Shown here: piece by piece, positions 1,311 through 8,601 of the stretch | How the letters are laid out: every line of letters starts with the position of its first letter | How positions within the stretch are numbered: the stretch's first letter is position 1 | Virus record (IMG/VR): IMGVR_UViG_2700989489_000020 | DNA: 8,601 nt | From: a virus | Lineage: Duplodnaviria; Heunggongvirae; Uroviricota; Caudoviricetes | Direction: 5' to 3' (one strand) | Notes under the pieces: model-generated | Told to the model about the DNA's origin: nothing | What the model saw: the letters and a program-made list of their open reading frames with translations, nothing else | Database searches by the model: none | Position numbers and translations under genes: made by a program

Positions 1311-1571
1311 CTAATCTTCAAAAGCAGAAAAACCAGCCTTAATCCCAGCTTCTTTCAGAGACGGCAACGATGTGACAAATTCATTTGCACGCAAAATAAA
1401 ACCATCCGTCACAAGCCCATCCACAAAATGAATTAACGCAGCTCCACTCTTCCTTTGTTGAGACTGTAAACATTTAATACGGCAGTGGCTGACAATAGCG
1501 CCCTTCTCAACGCGCACAGTATAGAGGCCATCTTCACTAAAAATTTCACGTAATTCTTCGATTCTCATCAA
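1311..1571 (-). CDS. Small hypothetical protein (86 aa); sits where rem lies next to hokD in Qin-type prophages
   Basis: ORF track. GGAAGGA about 9 nt upstream of the ATG on the minus strand. Identity with Rem not verified. Confidence 0.5.
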   Translation of the reverse strand: MMRIEELREIFSEDGLYTVRVEKGAIVSHCRIKCLQSQQRKSGAALIHFVDGLVTDGFILRANEFVTSLPSLKEAGIKAGFSAFED

Positions 1572-1650
1572 CAGAATCCTTCCAGATAAATAGCACTCCC
1601 CTGTTCGGGGTCCATCCCTCTTCTCCCTGCGCGCTACTTAAGTATTTTTG

Positions 1651-1680
1651 ATTCTATTCCGGCGCCGTCCGGAACTTCAA
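1651..1680 (-). promoter_or_regulatory. Candidate sigma70 promoter for the 1311..1571 gene
   Basis: Minus strand reads TTGAAG (plus 1675-1680), 18-bp spacer, TAGAAT (plus 1651-1656). Lies just downstream of the hok terminator. Confidence 0.3.
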
Positions 1681-1685
1681 ACGCG

Positions 1686-1720
1686 TTGAAAATAAAAACA
1701 AAAACCCGCCGAAGCGGGTT
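1686..1720 (-). terminator. Rho-independent terminator after hok
   Basis: Minus strand reads AACCCGC-TTCG-GCGGGTT followed by TTTTGTTTTTATTTTC; 7-bp GC-rich stem plus U tract, about 70 nt after the hok stop. Confidence 0.6.
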
Positions 1721-1788: not shown

Positions 1789-1944
1789 TTACTCCTCAGG
1801 TTCGTAAGCTGTGAAGACAGCGACCTCCGTCTGGCCGGTTCGGATTCGTACCTCGCAGAGGTCTTTCCTCGTTACCAGTGCCGTCACTATGACGGTTAAA
1901 CAGATGACGATCAGGGCGATTAACATCGCCTTTTGCTGCTTCAT
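1789..1944 (-). CDS. hokD: Hok/Gef family type I toxin (51 aa), HokD/RelF-like
   Basis: Translation from the internal Met of ORF 1789..2001: MKQQKAMLIALIVICLTVIVTALVTRKDLCEVRIRTGQTEVAVFTAYEPEE, matching my recollection of HokD. AAGGAG 9 nt upstream of that ATG. Single TM segment plus conserved Cys. Confidence 0.85.
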   Translation of the reverse strand: MKQQKAMLIALIVICLTVIVTALVTRKDLCEVRIRTGQTEVAVFTAYEPEE

Positions 1945-2136
1945 AGCCTGCTTCTCCTTGACCTTTCGGTCCGTAAGAGGCAATCTATATGTGACGAGCA
2001 TATAGGGGCCTCACTTCGATTTATAGTCGGGTGGGGCTTTTATCTATCTGCCGTTGGTGTTCATGCCCGAGGCAGATAGCCTCAAGCACCCGCAGCAATC
2101 CTACTTAACTCTGCCGTTACAGCAAACCGTTTTCGC

Positions 2137-2279: not shown

Positions 2280-3038
2280 TCAAGTGCCTTTCCTGGTCCA
2301 GCCATATTTTTTGAATGCAGGCGCCGCTTCATCGGTTTGTAGCCATTCTGCAAATCGACGGGTTTCATCATTTGCATCCTGACGTACTGTAATGTTCATA
2401 TCACGCCATATCACGTAGTCTGGCGCTATTTCCACGACATCACCAATTTCTGGATTACTGGCTGCCCAGTCAGCCCAGGTTATCCAGACATCTGCTCCAG
2501 GCTGATTCTCAAGAGCCTTACGTGCAGTTCCGCTATTGGGCGCATATAAAATAATATTTTTTCGGATTGCGGCGACAGTTTCTATATTCCCTTTACGTCC
2601 GGCAATATCTTCCCAGACGCCAGTGCCTGATGTATTACTGGTACCACCACCATCATTAACAATTACGCCAATCCCAGGTCTGGTCAGGTCGTCAATACTC
2701 CGGATATTTTTAGGATTACCTTTCTTTACCAGTAAAATACTTTTTCGCAGATAAAGAGGCTGAATATCTTTTTCACTGAAGCTGTCTTTATGGTCCCGAA
2801 TGATAGCCAGAGCAGATTGTTCTGATGCGCCAAACAAGATATCTGCATTTTTTTTGGCATCTTCATTCCATTTGTTCTGTGGGCCGTAATGAACGTTCAC
2901 TATAATACCTGTTTTTTCGGCATAAAGTTTGGCTGCATCAAGCAAGGCTGTATGCGGGCCACCAGGACCATACAGATTGATATCAGCATAAGCAGCAGAA
3001 GACAGGAATATTAAAAAACCTGCCATTATGTTCCTCAT
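2280..3038 (-). CDS. Secreted periplasmic substrate-binding protein (ModA-like solute-binding fold), orphan cargo gene
   Basis: ORF track 252 aa. AAGGAG 7 nt upstream of the ATG at 3038. Sec-type signal peptide MRNIMAGFLIFLSSAAYA then DINLYG. C-terminal ...FKKYGWTRKGT resembles the ModA C-terminus from memory. Visibly AT-rich relative to neighbours. Confidence 0.75.
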   Translation of the reverse strand: MRNIMAGFLIFLSSAAYADINLYGPGGPHTALLDAAKLYAEKTGIIVNVHYGPQNKWNEDAKKNADILFGASEQSALAIIRDHKDSFSEKDIQPLYLRKSILLVKKGNPKNIRSIDDLTRPGIGVIVNDGGGTSNTSGTGVWEDIAGRKGNIETVAAIRKNIILYAPNSGTARKALENQPGADVWITWADWAASNPEIGDVVEIAPDYVIWRDMNITVRQDANDETRRFAEWLQTDEAAPAFKKYGWTRKGT

Positions 3039-3202
3039 AAAAAACTCCTTTTATTGGTTATCATGAAATAAAGTTATAAACACTACAAATAATATATATT
3101 ACATCCAGATAAACTTATCCGACTTTACCTCGTGCATAGCTTGTTATTTAAAGTCAACAAAATAAGGAAAATTATACGCATATTGAAGAGTATAAACCTT
3201 AC

Positions 3203-3230
3203 ATGTTGATTACATTTTTGTAATCAACAT
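3203..3230. promoter_or_regulatory. 28-bp palindrome ATGTTGATTACA-TTTT-TGTAATCAACAT upstream of the binding-protein gene
   Basis: Perfect 12-bp inverted arms, 4-bp spacer, inside the AT-rich leader about 165 bp upstream of the start at 3038. No U tract on either side, so not a classic terminator. Confidence 0.5.
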
Positions 3231-3289
3231 CCTGTTTGGAATAGCCAGCCTTTAATGGATAACTATTTCTGACAATGCAATGAGTATAA

Positions 3290-3897
3290 TCAAGTCCATC
3301 TTCCACTGAGAATTAGAGGCGGCATGCTTTTTCCGGCTCTTGCCGGATATCCGTAATTGTCCATAATCTGCAGATTTATACCTTCTGCATGACCTGTCAG
3401 CGAAAATTTGTCCGGTGTTTCTACGGGAATGACATCAAAAGTTACACGCACTCGCGTTACCGTGTAGACCTACTTTCCTGCACTTGCAAGATCACAGTGG
3501 TGTAACCGTAACAGGAATTTATTCTCTGGACCGGCAGTAAATCCCTGAGTGGCGTGGTTCCCATATCAATTTCCCGCCAGGCAGCCTCCATTGCCAGCGT
3601 ACAGGCTGGAGCCATGACCTGCCCTTTAAATCTGGCCCGACCATCCCACCGGACGTGTTCTTCTCCCCTGAACTTAGGTACAGTCATCTCCAGTGGCACA
3701 AAAGTGTCAGCGCCATAATTTTTGACCGTTATCGCGCTACGGATATTTTGTTGACTGGTGAAAATCACCCCGCAGAATCAGGCTTATTCCCTTAACCTGG
3801 GCTTTCATCCTGACCGCCGCCTCACTACGACCAATCAGACTGCCGATGCATTTTACCTTCATTGTTAGTATCATGATTTCAGGCCTGCACCATCCGC
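3290..3897 (-). pseudogene. Decayed coding region: protein-like minus-strand reading frames broken across three frames
   Basis: Minus strand gives a 42-aa stretch (MKVKCIGSLIGRSEAAVRMKAQVKGISLILRGDFHQSTKYP), ORF 3457..3768, then an unstarted open frame ...VTRVRVTFDVIPVETPDKFSLTGHAEGINLQIMDNYGYPARAGKSMPPLILSGRWT ending at 3290. No single intact ORF, no good RBS. Family not recognised. Confidence 0.3.
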
Positions 3898-4631
3898 TCA
3901 TTGCCCGGACTTCCGACAAATCCCGGCAACCATATCCCGGTGCTTGTTCAGCTCCCGCAGCGCGGCGCAGACTCGCTCCCACTTCTGGACATGATTCTTC
4001 GCCCTACGCAGTTCGCGATTTGCCATATGCAGCGATGGCAAAATCAAATCATCTTCTCGCGTTGCAGTAAACGATGGCAGCGACTGCACAATGTCCGCCA
4101 CAGTTTCTGTTTTAATATCTTCCTGTGTTGCATCTTTCTGTACCGGTAACGAACACCGGCTGGCTGAGGAAAGGCTTTACCATCGGTTTCCGCTACCGAT
4201 TCAACTTTCGGCTCTGCTGGTAAATTATCACCTGGTATGCAGTAACGAATTTTACCGTTCTGGTTTACGCGAATCAGACGACCTTTGCTGATTGCCATTG
4301 CCAGCGTTGAAGCAACTTTGCGGGATGTTGTACCGAACAGCGTAGCCAGTTCATCCGCCGTTTGTGGTCCGCGTTGTTCAATCGTCGCGGTTAAATCGCA
4401 CTCTGAGATTTTCGCTTCTGTTGCCGTGGTGGTTTCTTCTGGCGCTGGCTGTTCCTGCTGAACGTTGTTATCAGCCACACGCCAGGTGTATACGCTTTTA
4501 TCAACGAAGCCAGCCTTTTTCAGTTCCCACAGCTCGTTCAGTACTTCTTCACGACTGATATCAAGTCGCGCAGCCAGCTCTACCGACGTGGCTTTTCCCA
4601 TCGCTTTCAGTGCGTCAAAAACAGTCTCCAT
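3898..4631 (-). CDS. Winged-helix prophage protein (DUF1627-like), apparently frameshifted near 4140-4180
   Basis: ORF 4044..4631 has GGGAGGAAA 5 nt upstream of the ATG and an HTH-like N-terminus, but its last ~40 aa are low-quality. A second frame (open from 4176, ORF 3898..4101) encodes plausible sequence [73 protein letters not shown]1627 name is from memory. Confidence 0.5.
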
Positions 4632-5330: not shown

Positions 5331-6159
5331 GGTTTACCCCTTTGCTGACTGGTTTAACCTGCGCCCTGACGTGATTTACGTGACGGGCGAATTTCTGCTC
5401 CCACTGAATCTGCGTAAACACTTTCCCCTCCGCTGCCCAGTAGTCCCGGAAGGCGGCAAGTTCAGCAGGTGTAAATTCTGTCTCCGGCAAAGCCATCCCC
5501 CACAACGCAGCCCGTCGTCGAAAATCCCGTGACGGATACCAGCTATCGCTCATCGGGAATTTTCCGATGGGTTCGCTCAGGCCATACAGGAATACAGGGG
5601 GGGCTGCCTGTAACGACAAAACTTCCTGCTCACTGGTCGGAGCACTCTCGCGTGCGTTATGTGTGGGGTTTAGATCTTTGGGTTCCTTTGGGTTCCGTGA
5701 TCCGTTTTTGGGTGTCTTTGATGGAAAATTTGGGTGTCTTTGGTTATTTTCCATGCAGCTAAGAGTTCTGTTTTTGGGTCTGTTTTGTGCTGAAACATAA
5801 CCATTTTCGGTACTGTTTTTATTAACAGCACCAATTTTACCCACCTTTAAAGACTCCCGTTTTTGGGTGTATTCAGGCTCGGCAACACTTTCTTCTACAC
5901 CGATAAGTCGGTACACCACAATTTGCTTTGTTCTGCCTTTTCTCTCACCGGTATCAACAATTAACCCAATCTCCATCAGGTGTCGTAAGCTGTCCTGCAC
6001 AGTCTTTTTGTTCAGTTCCGTTACTTCTGCCAGTGCAGATACAGACGGGTATGCACACAAATCGGCACCGCACATATCAGCAAGCCAGGTCAATACTGAC
6101 TTACTGGATGAACTGCCGGTTTTCACCTTTTTAGCCCATCGTAGTGCATCGATACTCAT
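5119..6159 (-). CDS. Replication initiator (O-like): N-terminal winged-helix DNA-binding domain, low-complexity linker, DnaT-like C-terminal domain
   Basis: ORF track 5119..6234; start placed at the internal Met MSIDALRWAKK (ATG 6157-6159, AGGGG about 8 nt upstream). Linker region coincides with the iteron array. Domain assignment from recalled family features. Confidence 0.8.
   Translation of the reverse strand: MSIDALRWAKKVKTGSSSSKSVLTWLADMCGADLCAYPSVSALAEVTELNKKTVQDSLRHLMEIGLIVDTGERKGRTKQIVVYRLIGVEESVAEPEYTQKRESLKVGKIGAVNKNSTENGYVSAQNRPKNRTLSCMENNQRHPNFPSKTPKNGSRNPKEPKDLNPTHNARESAPTSEQEVLSLQAAPPVFLYGLSEPIGKFPMSDSWYPSRDFRRRAALWGMALPETEFTPAELAAFRDYWAAEGKVFTQIQWEQKFARHVNHVRAQVKPVSKGVNHAAAPGGTASRAVQEIRAAREQWERENGFISDGNGLEAVGTHGGGLFEPLDPEERGRTFEALDCTDWRDD
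5676..5871. repeat. Iteron array and AT-rich stretch: candidate phage origin of replication inside the initiator gene
   Basis: Six direct copies of core TTTGGGT: CTTTGGGTTCC at 5676-5686 and 5686-5696; TTTGGGTGTCTTTG at 5707-5720 and 5729-5742; TTTGGGTCTG at 5773-5782; TTTGGGTGTA at 5862-5871. AT-rich 5783-5858 lies between the last two. Confidence 0.6.
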
Positions 6160-6682
6160 ACGAACCCCTGGCAGACATTTGTTTATCTGCAAAGTAATAT
6201 TGGTATTGCTGACGATACGCGTGCTTGAAAGCAATAGCTTTTTCTATAAGCTCGTCAGTCTCACGTTCCACAACAACTGGATCCGCAAAAAGCAGCCCGG
6301 ACTCCACCACATCGCCATATTCTTTGTTTAACCCGGCGATCATGTACGTAATGCTTTTTCCGTCAGTAATTTCACAATACAATCTGAAATCGCTGATCCG
6401 GATAGCCTCCATAATTGCCGGAATCAGCGCCGTGAATTTGTCACGCTTATCTCTGGTGTCGATAGCTTTCCAGCGTTCGAATATCTTCACCCGGTTAACG
6501 CCCAGCGCCCGTTGATCAACCTCGCCATCATTAAACGTGACGCGTTGAACATCGATGTTCGGGCGTTCTTTCAGAGCCCAGAATGCTTCCGTGATTAATA
6601 TCGTCGCCTGCTCCTGTGTCATTCCTGGTCGGCATACCCAGGTATCCAGAGCCTCACAAACCTGTTCAGTGGTGATTTTCAT
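6131..6682 (-). CDS. YdaT-like protein in the cII position (183 aa)
   Basis: ORF track. Sits between the Cro-like gene and the initiator; overlaps the Cro-like stop by 17 nt and the initiator start by 29 nt. YdaT call rests on synteny with Rac racR-ydaS-ydaT and a loosely remembered motif. Confidence 0.55.
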   Translation of the reverse strand: MKITTEQVCEALDTWVCRPGMTQEQATILITEAFWALKERPNIDVQRVTFNDGEVDQRALGVNRVKIFERWKAIDTRDKRDKFTALIPAIMEAIRISDFRLYCEITDGKSITYMIAGLNKEYGDVVESGLLFADPVVVERETDELIEKAIAFKHAYRQQYQYYFADKQMSARGSYEYRCTTMG

Positions 6683-6893
6683 TGTTCAACCGCCCCGCCC
6701 GCTTTGCCTTACGATATTCGTCATAAACTTTGGGGTCGTACTGAAGTTCCCCGCCGGATGCCTCTTGCAGGCGCATCGCGCGACCTTCAGGAACCAGTTC
6801 CCCCCATGCAGCAACGCTTGCCAGCCTAACTCCTGCGACATTGGCAAGCTTTGTTTTGCTGCCAAAAAACGCTATAGCATCAATTTTCAACAT
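6666..6893 (-). CDS. Cro-like HTH regulator (P22 Cro / YdaS family)
   Basis: 75 aa. AAGGGG 6 nt upstream of the ATG. Core FFGSKTKLANVAGVRLASVAAWGELVPEGRAMRLQEASGGEL resembles P22 Cro from memory. Divergent from the repressor. Confidence 0.75.
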   Translation of the reverse strand: MLKIDAIAFFGSKTKLANVAGVRLASVAAWGELVPEGRAMRLQEASGGELQYDPKVYDEYRKAKRAGRLNNENHH

Positions 6894-6969
6894 ATCGAAC
6901 CCCTTAGATTTTCCTAAGGAAACTAGATCGTAGAGAAACCTAAGTCAAGAAAAATTAGAATTACCTAAT
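6894..6969. promoter_or_regulatory. Divergent control region with three 16-bp dyad operators and two back-to-back promoters
   Basis: Operators of form YTTAG-N6-CTAAR: CTTAGATTTTCCTAAG (6903-6918), CGTAGAGAAACCTAAG (6929-6944), ATTAGAATTACCTAAT (6954-6969), spaced 25-26 bp. Minus-strand promoter: TTGACT (plus 6943-6948), 17 bp, TAGTTT. Plus-strand -10 TAGAAT (6956-6961) ends 8 nt before the repressor ATG, with a poor -35. Confidence 0.6.
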
Positions 6970-7377
6970 ATGAAAAACGAAACCTTCGGTGCTCGCCTCT
7001 TATACAGGCGAAAAAAATTAAAACTGTCTCAGGCCGCATTAGGTAAGCTGGTCAAAGTGGCTCACGTAACAATTTCTCAATGGGAAAGAGATGAAACACA
7101 GCCAGCGGGGAAGAGATTATTCGCACTGAGCCAGGCGCTTCAGTGCTCGCCGACTTGGCTTCTTTTTGGAGATGAAGATAAGCAACCAGGCGAACCGATC
7201 CCAGATAATCAGCCAGTCAATCTGACAGAAGATCAAAAAGAGTTGCTTCAACTGTTCGACGCACTGCCTGAGTCAGAGCAAAAGGCTCTGTTGTCAGAGA
7301 TGCGTGCTCGAGTTGAGAATTTCAACAAACTTTTTGAAGAACTACTCAAAGCTCGCAAAAGAAGCGCAAATAAATAA
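6970..7377 (+). CDS. CI-like prophage repressor, XRE-family HTH, no S24 peptidase domain
   Basis: 135 aa. HTH in LSQAALGKLVKVAHVTISQWERDE. Too short for a LexA-like autocleavage domain and no such motif seen. No Shine-Dalgarno; apparently leaderless. Confidence 0.85.
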   Translation: MKNETFGARLLYRRKKLKLSQAALGKLVKVAHVTISQWERDETQPAGKRLFALSQALQCSPTWLLFGDEDKQPGEPIPDNQPVNLTEDQKELLQLFDALPESEQKALLSEMRARVENFNKLFEELLKARKRSANK

Positions 7378-7451: not shown

Positions 7452-7505
7452 CTTAGGTTTTTCTACACAAAAAGCTTGACCATAACTCTTAGGCTATTCT
7501 AAATT
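7452..7505 (+). promoter_or_regulatory. Putative PL-like promoter with two operator-like sites
   Basis: CTTAGGTTTTTCTACA (7452-7467) and CTTAGGCTATTCTAAA (7488-7503) share the half-site and N6 spacing of the 6903-6969 operators. -35 TTGACC (7476-7481), 18-bp spacer, -10 TAAATT (7500-7505). Confidence 0.45.
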
Positions 7506-7584
7506 CTACTCATCAAGACACCGCACGGTGTTCTCAGCAAACAGTTCCGCTACCCGGCGTTAAGGGGAAGCAGAGGATTTCTCA

Positions 7585-7941
7585 GTGGGCGAAGTCAAAC
7601 ATCAGAATGGAAGGCGTCCAGGGATCAGCAAAGAAACAGCGATGGCGCTTTATATTGATATCAGCGCCATTGCCGGACAGGTAAGAGTTATCAGAGCGGT
7701 AACTAAGCGGTATGCGCCTTTACTTCAGAAAGTCTCTGGTGAGTGCACCGAAGATATTGTCAACGATTTCGTCATCGAACTGCGAGGACTCATCTTCAGT
7801 TACAAGGTGACCACAATTTTTGCAGATGGCTCCCGCGAAACTGTCAGAGCCCTGCGGCTTAAAGGATGTGTCAAAGACTTAGCCACCACATTCTGGGCAA
7901 GAAAACTTGATTGTATTCATAACCAATTTCCTCTCGAGTAA
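7585..7941 (+). CDS. Hypothetical protein, first gene of the left operon (118 aa from GTG; alternative ATG at 7642)
   Basis: ORF track. GAGGA 7 nt upstream of the GTG at 7585. No recognisable family; no N-like arginine-rich motif. Confidence 0.5.
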   Translation: MGEVKHQNGRRPGISKETAMALYIDISAIAGQVRVIRAVTKRYAPLLQKVSGECTEDIVNDFVIELRGLIFSYKVTTIFADGSRETVRALRLKGCVKDLATTFWARKLDCIHNQFPLE

Positions 7942-8013: not shown

Positions 8014-8232
8014 ATGCAGAAACGAGACCCCGTCATCATCGCGCCAGACTATACCGATGATGAACTTTATGAGTGGATGCACCAGAAAATTAAGGCGGTG
8101 CAGGACCTGAAATGGGCCAATGAAGCCAGGGCTAAGCAGGCTGAAAATCTGTCCGCTCTGGAGCAGGATATCACCAATCTGGAAAAAGCAGCGGCATTAA
8201 GCATTGCCAGAATGATTACATACCCACGTTAA
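8014..8232 (+). CDS. Hypothetical small protein (72 aa)
   Basis: ORF track. AAGGAG 7 nt upstream of the ATG. Predicted helical, acidic N-terminus. Function unknown. Confidence 0.55.
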   Translation: MQKRDPVIIAPDYTDDELYEWMHQKIKAVQDLKWANEARAKQAENLSALEQDITNLEKAAALSIARMITYPR

Positions 8233-8254: not shown

Positions 8255-8521
8255 ATGGAATTTAAAGATTTACCAACGCCATTACAGGAAATGGCATCGA
8301 ATATAGTTCGTTCACAACTGGCTACTCTTGACCTTAGTACCGCAGAAAAAGAAACCATCGATAATATGGTTCGTAATGTGCGCAATGCTTTTTCTGGGCT
8401 ATATGGTTCTGATAATCAAAAGCAGGAAAGCGATGTTAATAAACGGGTAATTTCTGTTTGCGTGAATGGCCATGTGAGGTGTACTGGCAATAGCGGACAC
8501 TACCATTTGTTCTTTTTTTAA
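8255..8521 (+). CDS. Hypothetical protein (88 aa as read); 3' end probably replaced by IS-derived sequence from about 8480
   Basis: ORF track. GAGG 8 nt upstream. Last ~13 codons lie inside the inferred IS terminal repeat. Confidence 0.5.
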   Translation: MEFKDLPTPLQEMASNIVRSQLATLDLSTAEKETIDNMVRNVRNAFSGLYGSDNQKQESDVNKRVISVCVNGHVRCTGNSGHYHLFFF

Positions 8522-8601
8522 GCAGCCATCTGATGATATTTTTCCCTGAAGGCTGCCGGGGAGATATTCCCCAGACGAGAGTGACGACGCTGACGATTGT
8601 A
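8480..8601 (-). mobile_element. Right end of an IS3-family insertion sequence (terminal repeat plus transposase 3' end); element continues past the window
   Basis: Plus strand from 8480 reads TGTACTGGCAATAGCGGACAC, resembling the IS3 terminal repeat as I recall it (TG..GCAATAGTGGACAC). Transposase stop lies 38 bp inside that end. Confidence 0.55.
8518..8601 (-). CDS. IS3-family transposase (OrfB-type), C-terminal 27 codons only
   Basis: Minus-strand translation YNRQRRHSRLGNISPAAFREKYHQMAA-stop, matching the conserved C-terminal pattern of IS3-family transposases (compare IS3 ...[24 protein letters not shown], from memory). Confidence 0.65.
   Translation of the reverse strand, partial: YNRQRRHSRLGNISPAAFREKYHQMAA

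Follow-up and report, generated by a model that had tools for sequence, protein, structure and literature searches.

A DicA-type repressor without a self-cleavage domain and a Rem homolog as its candidate antirepressor in the EHEC prophage PPompW

What inactivates a prophage repressor that is too short to carry a LexA-like self-cleavage domain? The question is raised by a gene in the window, by which we mean the whole stretch of 8,601 nucleotides analysed here (IMG/VR record IMGVR_UViG_2700989489_000020). The window is 100% identical to the prophage beside ompW in EHEC O26, O111, and O103 genomes and matches the deposited records of that prophage, PPompW, at 99.9%; the repressor gene is annotated dicA in those records, and RefSeq annotates WP_000787428.1 at exactly 6970..7377 in an identical genome. 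PPompW is a defective lambdoid prophage with a lambda-like gene order (int-xis-exo-dicB-dicF...ydfC-(OL)-dicA-(OR)-dicC-cII-O-P...hokD-rem-ydfU-rusA-Q-lysis-structural genes), in which dicC is followed by a cII-like gene of the YdaT family, an O-like gene, and a P-like gene (Pfam). Its cargo includes paa and T3SS effectors, and in the window's lineage the portal gene is frameshifted and an IS600 splits the left operon. Nakamura 2021 (PMC8112680) describes PPompW as never packaged and every examined copy as defective. EHEC genomes are rich in lambdoid prophages, with 8-22 matching places per record among the genomes listed.

The repressor consists of an HTH domain and a short tail with no S24 domain, as the sequence-only reading had proposed. 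Pfam finds HTH_3 at residues 12-64 (E 4.3e-14), and Peptidase_S24 (PF00717) gives zero matches at E ≤ 10 with either the full repressor or the tail (residues 68-135) alone. Residues 1-69 match the solved DNA-binding domain of P22 C2 by sequence (E 1e-21), and the AlphaFold2 model of the HTH domain superposes on that structure with a TM score of 0.97 and an rmsd of 0.5 Å at 62% identity. Aligned with full-length P22 C2 (216 aa), the repressor and three relatives resemble it no further than about residue 70, and gaps stand opposite the cleavage site of C2 (VSA/GQWM), the GDSM motif with the catalytic Ser, and the remaining S24 fold. The linker (residues 70-86) contains neither an Ala-Gly nor a Cys-Gly cleavage site. 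The sole Ala-Gly of the protein, at residues 46-47 (QPAGK), falls between helices 3 and 4 of the HTH domain, at a position that is TG in K-12 DicA and NG in P22 C2; judged by this placement and lack of conservation in the sequences, it is not a LexA-type cleavage site. The repressor therefore lacks both hallmarks of the LexA/S24-type self-cleaving class, an S24 domain with its Ser/Lys dyad and a cleavage site in the linker, the very signs that would have spoken against the earlier proposal. With the S24 domain, the linker Ala-Gly, and the dyad all missing, RecA-stimulated self-cleavage of the repressor is impossible. The presence of Ala46-Gly47 might still suggest cleavage, spontaneous or RecA-assisted, at a cryptic site of this kind, a prospect that we consider negligible: the dipeptide lies within the folded HTH domain, the predicted fold is all-helical, and the related Gifsy repressors have been shown to remain uncleaved (PMC3121763).

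The tail deserves separate attention. The AlphaFold2 model (pLDDT 88) has five HTH helices, the linker, and two tail helices at residues 87-98 and 101-134; it contains no beta structure, and the tail is all-helical. The earlier description of an acidic, helical tail is thus borne out for the helices and holds for the charge only over residues 70-100 (linker and first tail helix, net -5), the last helix being +3 and the whole protein +4. The linker is poorly conserved, and conservation of the tail equals that of the HTH domain across the DicA family, so that the tail is evidently functional; it probably supplies dimerisation or cooperativity, and possibly a surface for partner recognition. In a whole-chain Foldseek search the top matches are SinR, taken from its complex with SinI, and arbitrium-phage repressors whose structures include AimX, though the whole-chain fits are poor (rmsd 8-10 Å). 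Yun 2012 (PMC3441716) proposed that the DicA tail resembles the winged helix of MarR/SlyA/RovA. We did not find such a resemblance: no MarR, SlyA, or RovA chain is retrieved with the tail at E ≤ 10 or with the profile of the DicA family at E ≤ 1, Pfam gives no MarR match, and the two modelled helices are wingless.

By all these features the repressor is an ordinary full-length member of the DicA family, short and non-self-cleaving. It scores 241.6 bits (cutoff 101) against the NCBIfam model for transcriptional repressor DicA (NF007257) over residues 1-135 of 135, it is 63% identical to the DicA of the E. coli K-12 prophage Qin, which has the same length, and it shows the family architecture of about 135 aa with a P22-C2-like HTH domain and a conserved non-S24 tail. 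Its best 120 homologs, from many Enterobacterales genera, are all 104-168 aa long with HTH domains only. Among 103 matches in the phage collection, 25 span at least 80% of the repressor, and in the partial matches listed the similarity is confined to the HTH domain, most of the matched repressors carrying the label C2, cI, or LexA-family. Short, uncleavable, antirepressor-controlled DicA-type repressors have already been published (PMC3121763; PMC10448788): Lemire 2011 (PMC3121763) names DicA within the Gifsy-type repressor group, and Ragunathan 2023 (PMC10448788) describes Qin DicA as having no Ala-Gly bond. The absence of self-cleavage in this family, and the need for an antirepressor or another inactivation route, are thus established, and the same need as voiced in the sequence-only reading agrees with the published view of the DicA/Gifsy class. 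What that reading called "non-canonical induction" belongs to a known family and is no novelty.

The surroundings of the gene are likewise those of a DicA-family immunity region, with a divergent dicC and operator-like sites on both flanks (Table 1). The dicC product scores 167.6 bits (cutoff 130) against NCBIfam DicC and is 83% identical to K-12 DicC. Five of the six CTTAG-N6-CTAAG matches in the window (pattern search) sit in the two intergenic regions that flank dicA, and the three OR-like sites follow one another at centre-to-centre distances of 26 and 25 bp. In K-12, the operator Oc has been defined by experiment as TTGTTAG-N6-CTAACAA (PMC3441716), and the core TTAG-N6-CTAA is common to it and to the operator-like sites of the window. 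OR-like site 3 would overlap a TAGAAT -10 element (6956-6961) that appears to yield a near-leaderless dicA mRNA, and OR-like sites 1 and 2 would overlap a leftward candidate promoter of dicC, TTGACT-17-TAGTTT. On the other flank, the -35 element and downstream leader of the left promoter align with K-12 dicBp. Downstream of dicA in the identical genome lie DicF (76.7 bits) and dicB, with the IS600 in between; from this synteny, the repressor is predicted to control the DicF/DicB operon.

Table 1. Coordinates of the repressor, its immunity region, and the rem locus in the window
Feature	Position	Strand	Basis or remark
dicA-type prophage repressor gene	6970..7377	+	ORF, ATG start, 135 aa
HTH domain of repressor	6970-7176	+	aa 1-69
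Linker of repressor	7177-7227	+	aa 70-86
Two-helix tail of repressor	7228-7371	+	aa 87-134
Repressor stop codon	7375-7377	+	
dicC, Cro-like partner	6666..6893	-	75 aa; Pfam P22_Cro E 3.2e-13
OR-like putative operator cluster, dicC/dicA intergenic	6903..6969	.	three CTTAG-N6-CTAAG-type sites
OR-like site 1	6903-6918	.	perfect CTTAG-N6-CTAAG; CCTTAG..CTAAGG with flanks
OR-like site 2	6929-6944	.	pattern search
OR-like site 3	6954-6969	.	pattern search
PL/dicBp-equivalent promoter and two operator-like sites	7452..7505	+	promoter scan, operator pattern
Left promoter TTGACC-18-TAAATT	7476-7505	+	promoter scan
OL-like operator site	7452-7467		pattern search
OL-like operator site	7488-7503		pattern search
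Left operon, orf	7642-7941	+	predicted
Left operon, ydfC	8014-8232	+	predicted
Left operon, dicF and dicB	past window	+	predicted
rem homolog, candidate antirepressor	1311..1571	-	86 aa from TTG 1571, or 85 aa from ATG 1568
rem control region	1572..1720	-	scan; 96% identical to K-12
hokD terminator	1720-1703	-	scan
rem sigma-70 promoter TTGAAG-18-TAGAAT	1680-1651	-	promoter match
Upstream ATG in rem leader	1615-1613	-	its TGA (1570-1568) overlaps rem ATG (1568-1566)

The sequence-only reading had stated that no candidate antirepressor was evident in the window. This is incorrect, because the window encodes a close homolog of Rem, 5.4 kb from dicA. The protein is 73% identical to K-12 Rem (E 2e-40) and matches phrog_340 (E 5.3e-22), and its homologs are all tagged PF27490 in precomputed Pfam annotation. 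Position agrees with sequence in placing it in the Rem family: the order in the window is hokD - rem - 92-aa ORF - ydfU, with the hokD-rem-ydfU synteny of Qin. The ORF is labelled rem in PPompW records, and in the related record MN652886 Rem is labelled "prophage antirepressor", its gene standing directly upstream of irsA with no dinI. Ragunathan 2023 (PMC10448788) identifies Rem, encoded between hokD and ydfU, as the K-12 antirepressor of DicA, and in that study ectopic K-12 Rem raises expression of the DicA-controlled dicBp-lacZ fusion 165-fold; the evidence given there is genetic, from ectopic expression. By analogy, the Rem of the window would relieve repression by the DicA of the window; identity to the tested K-12 proteins is only 73% for Rem and 63% for DicA. 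The structure model of Rem, beta-rich at low confidence, is unreliable (pLDDT 64).

The company that Rem keeps is consistent with this assignment. All 15 phage records with Rem fall in the DicA-type group. On 51 IMG/VR contigs rem is preceded by at least 7.5 kb of sequence. In 50 of them a full-length DicA-type repressor is encoded 5-8 kb upstream of rem, and the remaining contig encodes a distant relative in which the match to the tail persists; a P22-C2-type S24 domain occurs in none. Over 141 loci we counted 54 distinct (Rem, DicA) pairs, in 53 of which DicA is exactly 135 aa. Identities of Rem and DicA do not co-vary (Spearman -0.01 and 0.05 for the two domains of DicA): near-identical Rems accompany DicAs of 50-100% identity with at least five recognition-helix variants, which have in common the tail motif L(F/Y)xALPxSEQ..RARVxNFNxLFxELLxA, and K-12 and mEp460 are 96% identical in Rem and only 55% (HTH domain) and 64% (tail) in DicA. 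This pairing pattern resembles the cross-immunity action of the Gifsy antirepressors, and it would also be expected of two genes that simply reside on the same phage backbone. The Rem family is small: a profile search of 1.84 billion representatives gave 49 matches. Distant relatives of 56-91 aa in Cronobacter and Buttiauxella have only the C-terminal core GF.LR.DEFVTS..L.EA..KAG in common with it, and a Klebsiella phage combines a 60-aa Rem-like ORF with a 135-aa DicA in the same synteny as in the window.

The prophage might instead have no dedicated inducer. As a defective remnant, it would lose DicA function through instability, temperature, or antagonism by nucleoid proteins, DicC would lock the flip, and Rem would be irrelevant. 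Several observations lend this alternative weight. In K-12, about 1% spontaneous derepression, and derepression by urea or heat, occur without rem or recA and with a requirement for dicC (PMC10448788); DicA binds its operator more weakly at 37 C and is antagonised by a Cnu-H-NS complex (PMC3441716); and the defects noted above, in every copy studied (PMC8112680) and in the portal gene and left operon here, are those of a remnant. Yet rem is intact in the window and strongly retained, being present in 3016 of 5426 complete E. coli genomes; its -10 element and leader are conserved above its coding sequence; a DicA-type repressor stands nearly always alongside; and the functional temperate phage mEp460_ev081 keeps both dicA and rem. 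An inducer-free route is, moreover, compatible with a Rem route. We therefore consider it somewhat unlikely, though a serious contender, that Rem plays no part.

If Rem is the dedicated antirepressor, the trigger would lie in what controls rem. Upstream of the -10 element we found at least five unrelated sequence classes across 44 distinct upstream sequences, and every class retains a TTGA-type -35 element 16-18 nt from an invariant TAGAAT. The leader of about 75 nt is nearly invariant, and its 29-nt core, TAGCGCGCAGGGAGAAGAGGGATGGACCC, is identical even in a clade whose Rem is only 60% identical; the -10 hexamer and leader are conserved better than the rem coding sequence. The short reading frame in the leader varies in frame and length between variants, so that this conservation is not protein-coding. 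A structured RNA in the leader is not convincingly supported (covariation term -0.2 kcal/mol, z-score -1.44). The leader might act as a switch that responds to some non-SOS cue, through translation or through binding of a protein, in loose analogy with the Gifsy-1 isrK-orf45-anrP locus. An Rfam isrK match at 1699-1780 on the minus strand was rejected, since it reaches 24.9 bits against a threshold of 50 and covers the 3' hairpins and terminator of hokD; AnrP, encoded at the isrK locus, is of the Ant type, larger than Rem and not homologous to it. We also rejected the palindrome TTCCGG-N6-CCGGAA in the spacer of the rem promoter as an operator, since the spacer is not conserved among variants, and a search for CTTAG-N6-CTAAG found no DicA-type operator in the rem control region. 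That a signal of the repressor class acts at the rem control region, and separately that a LexA-like box in the origin (described below) ties LexA to the prophage, are propositions to which we give little credence.

The sequence-only reading had recommended a search of the rest of the prophage for a LexA-controlled antirepressor, and such a gene finds no support in cis. We scanned for LexA boxes with a weight matrix whose genuine training boxes have a median of 20.5 bits. Upstream of rem there is none, the best nearby site (6.2 bits, 1294-1313) lying at the rem 3' end, and no box precedes any credible small ORF in the whole prophage. The single strong LexA-like site in the prophage, TACTGTTTTTATTAACAGCA at 5811-5830, scores 21.1 bits, a score reached in 0 of 300 simulated windows, and the next-best site scores 10.1 bits. 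A search with the simple pattern CTGT-N8-ACAG gave this site as its one match, which is not significant by shuffling and is significant under the weight matrix. The site lies within the O-like gene amid iteron-like repeats, and thus probably in the replication origin; it has no promoter match nearby, is kept in 21 of 21 relatives, all of them close, and lacks its left half in the one diverged relative. LexA bound there could control prophage replication or an antisense transcript directly, and if so, the site would provide the DNA-damage input missing from the repressor itself. A second recurrent LexA-like site of related phages, at the start of a DNA methylase gene, is missing from this prophage.

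PPompW, with an identical DicA, is reported to be excised and circularised in mitomycin-C-treated cells (PMC8112680); some DNA-damage input may thus reach the element, perhaps in trans, and it is not accounted for by a Rem whose gene lacks a LexA box. The excision, together with the abundance of lambdoid prophages in EHEC genomes and the ability of LexA-controlled Gifsy antirepressors to act across heteroimmune and unrelated prophages (PMC3121763), would fit an SOS control of Gifsy style, in which a LexA-repressed antirepressor encoded elsewhere in the prophage, or in trans by a co-resident prophage, inactivates DicA. We regard this as unlikely. In cis, the LexA scan speaks against it; the window has no dinI-antirepressor-irsA module; the Klebsiella phage with DicA and a Rem-like ORF likewise has no LexA box; derepression in K-12 is recA-independent (PMC10448788); and the mitomycin-C-treated strains carry inducible Stx phages, so that the effect of the drug could be indirect.

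A further candidate lies outside the window, in the lysis cassette: a P22-Ant-like protein (L002:13342-13908, minus strand) that matches P22_AR_N (E 1.4e-45) and the PHROG "anti-repressor Ant" (E 5.7e-110). Its candidacy as the antirepressor of DicA gains from the close likeness of the DNA-binding domains of DicA and P22 C2 (62% identity), since P22 C2 is the natural target of P22 Ant. Within the Q-dependent late operon, however, the gene is flanked by those for lysozyme and Rz; derepression would have to come before synthesis of its product, which therefore cannot act as the trigger. The protein is, moreover, only 188 aa, as against about 300 aa for P22 Ant. The lysis cassette, including the Ant-like gene, is deleted in PPompW record LC567822, and the PPompWs of O145 are reported to have IS-mediated lysis-cassette deletions (PMC8112680), with dicA and rem kept in both cases. 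This alternative is accordingly very improbable.

Our preferred reading, which we hold to be likely, is that the repressor is the uncleavable CI-equivalent of PPompW, from the DicA family, with Rem as its most probable dedicated inactivation route. The P22-C2-like HTH domain would bind TTAG-N6-CTAA operators, three OR-like between dicA and dicC and two OL-like at the leftward early promoter, and would thereby silence genes in both directions: dicC and the replication and late genes to one side, and to the other the ydfC-dicF-dicB operon. The two-helix tail would stand in for the S24 domain of self-cleavage and oligomerisation. Because DicA cannot self-cleave, RecA cannot inactivate it directly. 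Rem, made from its own promoter, would bind DicA and remove it from DNA by analogy with the Gifsy antirepressors; both the direct contact and the action of this Rem on this DicA are extrapolated from those systems. A second route, independent of Rem and RecA, may run through a bistable DicA/DicC switch that flips once a stress such as heat or urea destabilises DicA, in keeping with the partly dicC-dependent K-12 derepression described above (PMC10448788).

A common EHEC prophage with virulence cargo would thus use a switch of the DicA/Rem type, not RecA-triggered repressor cleavage, and derepression of PPompW may follow cues besides, or instead of, classical SOS. Knowledge of the trigger of rem would reveal when pathogenic strains express the early genes of the prophage along with DicB and DicF, which are linked to a cell-division block and phage resistance. 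The importance of the result is modest, and the rem-trigger question is common to PPompW and K-12 Qin.

Among known systems, P22 C2 and phage 21 cI have a nearly superposable DNA-binding domain, a divergent cro, and a multi-operator OR/OL layout in common with the window; in DicA, their S24 domain is replaced by a two-helix tail of about 50 aa. SinR/SinI and the arbitrium repressor/AimX (PDB 1b0n, 9sf2, 9iaq) resemble DicA in combining an HTH domain with a short helical tail. SinR and the arbitrium repressors are inactivated by a small protein partner, not by proteolysis; the likeness to DicA is architectural only, with negligible sequence similarity beyond the HTH domain. Rem, with its beta-rich prediction at low confidence, also differs from SinI, which is helical.

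The Gifsy-1, -2, and -3 prophages offer a closer parallel. Their repressors GfoR, GtgR, and GfhR are uncleaved, and their small LexA-controlled antirepressors GfoA, GftA, and GfhA bind and release them from DNA, as GftA does with GtgR on operator DNA (PMC3121763). Both systems have a CI-type repressor without a cleavage site (about 136 aa in Gifsy, 135 aa here) and a small antirepressor gene that lies apart from the immunity region, in the interval from the replication genes to Q, its antirepressor activity in the window being ascribed by analogy. A relatedness of Rem and GfoA in sequence, by transitive PSI-BLAST, is reported in PMC10448788. In Gifsy, one antirepressor serves heteroimmune repressors. 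The Gifsy repressors resemble the N-terminal domain of lambda CI nearly throughout (PMC3121763); DicA differs in its helical tail, which is distinct and conserved. Unlike the Gifsy antirepressor genes, rem in the window has neither a LexA box at its promoter nor the order dinI - antirepressor - irsA; no dinI lies upstream, and a promoter private to rem follows the hokD terminator. The Gifsy-like position relative to irsA occurs only in the relative MN652886.

The closest system is the cryptic prophage Qin of K-12 (Bejar/Bouche; Yun 2012; Ragunathan 2023), with which the window has in common the two-part, 135-aa repressor architecture, the three regulators (DicA, DicC, and Rem at 63%, 83%, and 73% identity), the TTAG-N6-CTAA operator core, a dicBp-homologous promoter and leader with ydfC, DicF, and dicB downstream, and a rem gene between hokD and ydfU whose promoter region is 96% identical. 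The operator flanks differ, CCTTAG in the window and TGTTAG in Qin; with a different allele and different flanks, the DicA of the window may well be of a different immunity from that of K-12. PPompW is also far more complete than Qin, keeping the O/P replication genes, Q, and the lysis and structural genes; it carries paa and T3SS effector cargo, and IS600 interrupts its left operon.

The sole strong LexA-box-like site of the entire prophage is a palindrome, TACTGTTTTTATTAACAGCA (window 5811-5830, 21.1 bits), which lies within the O-like replication gene and whose score was reached in none of 300 simulated windows. No promoter match was found near this site. It is kept in all 21 close relatives; in the single diverged relative compared, Edwardsiella phage EPP-1, its left half is missing. 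The linker-coding portion of the same gene contains two sets of iteron-like direct repeats, conserved in EPP-1, that probably constitute a lambda-style replication origin within the initiator gene. The coordinates of these repeats and of the other features are collected in the table.

Features in the window, elsewhere in the prophage (L002, the genome identical to the window) and in a Klebsiella phage (L145)
Feature	Location	Strand	Details
hokD/sok type I toxin-antitoxin locus, complete	window 1789-2091	minus	Rfam sok, 103.9 bits
paa, adhesin gene	window 2280-3038	minus	AcfC family; SBP_bac_11 domain
Degraded fimbrial gene	window ~3199-3732		adjoins paa
DUF1627 gene	window 4044-4631	minus	downstream of P-like gene
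Iteron-like direct repeats	window 5677-5873		TTTGGGTGTCTTTG x3 and GTTTTTGGGT(G/C)T x3
IS600	window ~8476-8601 (L002:28518-29674)		splits gene starting at 8255
P22-Ant-like protein, 188 aa	L002:13342-13908 (outside window)		P22_AR_N and ORF11CD3
Rem-like ORF, 60 aa, unannotated	L145:~8989-9171		Klebsiella phage ST405-OXA48phi1.2

A second recurrent LexA-like site, AACTGGATATTTTTACAGTA (23.5 bits), occurs at L099:12286-12305, a locus from another DicA/Rem phage, and at 37 other loci, and is not present in the window's prophage. In those other phages it overlaps the start of the coding sequence for a DNA adenine methyltransferase, a gene found ∼3.2 kb downstream from rem. The AT-rich intergenic region ahead of the Rem-like ORF of Klebsiella phage ST405-OXA48phi1.2 (L145:8690-8990) contains no LexA box; it does carry three copies of AAATAGGGGGTTG, to which a regulator of this antirepressor-like gene may bind.

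The leader of rem itself (window 1572-1650, minus strand) is more highly conserved than rem, and its 29-nt core is unchanged between clades whose Rem proteins are only 60% identical. The leader includes an upstream ATG, with a stop that overlaps the start codon of rem and a frame that differs among variants; a search for RNA structure in the leader yielded nothing convincing. Directly upstream of rem is the hokD/sok locus, where a sub-threshold isrK match spans the terminator and the 3′ hairpins of the hok mRNA.

Within the late lysis cassette, the gene for the P22-Ant-like protein is flanked by those for lysozyme and Rz. This cassette is deleted from the PPompW sequence deposited as LC567822, which has ISEc20 between the Q and terminase genes. 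Between the replication genes and hokD, paa and the degraded fimbrial gene are carried as cargo. The DUF1627 gene is frameshifted according to RefSeq (in the genome identical to the window), which, together with a frameshifted portal gene, fits the reported defectiveness of PPompW.

In this lineage, IS600 lies between the left-operon promoter and both dicF and dicB; the window match of most other PPompW copies ends at 8475. Downstream of that promoter is the transcribed leader CATCAAGACACCGCACGGTGTTCTCAGCAAACAGTTCCGCTACCCGGCGTTAAGGGGAAG (window 7513-7570), in which a CACCG..CGGTG hairpin occurs and which might serve in RNA processing or as a nut-like element. Although the operators and first genes are not the same, this leader is nearly identical to the K-12 dicBp leader.
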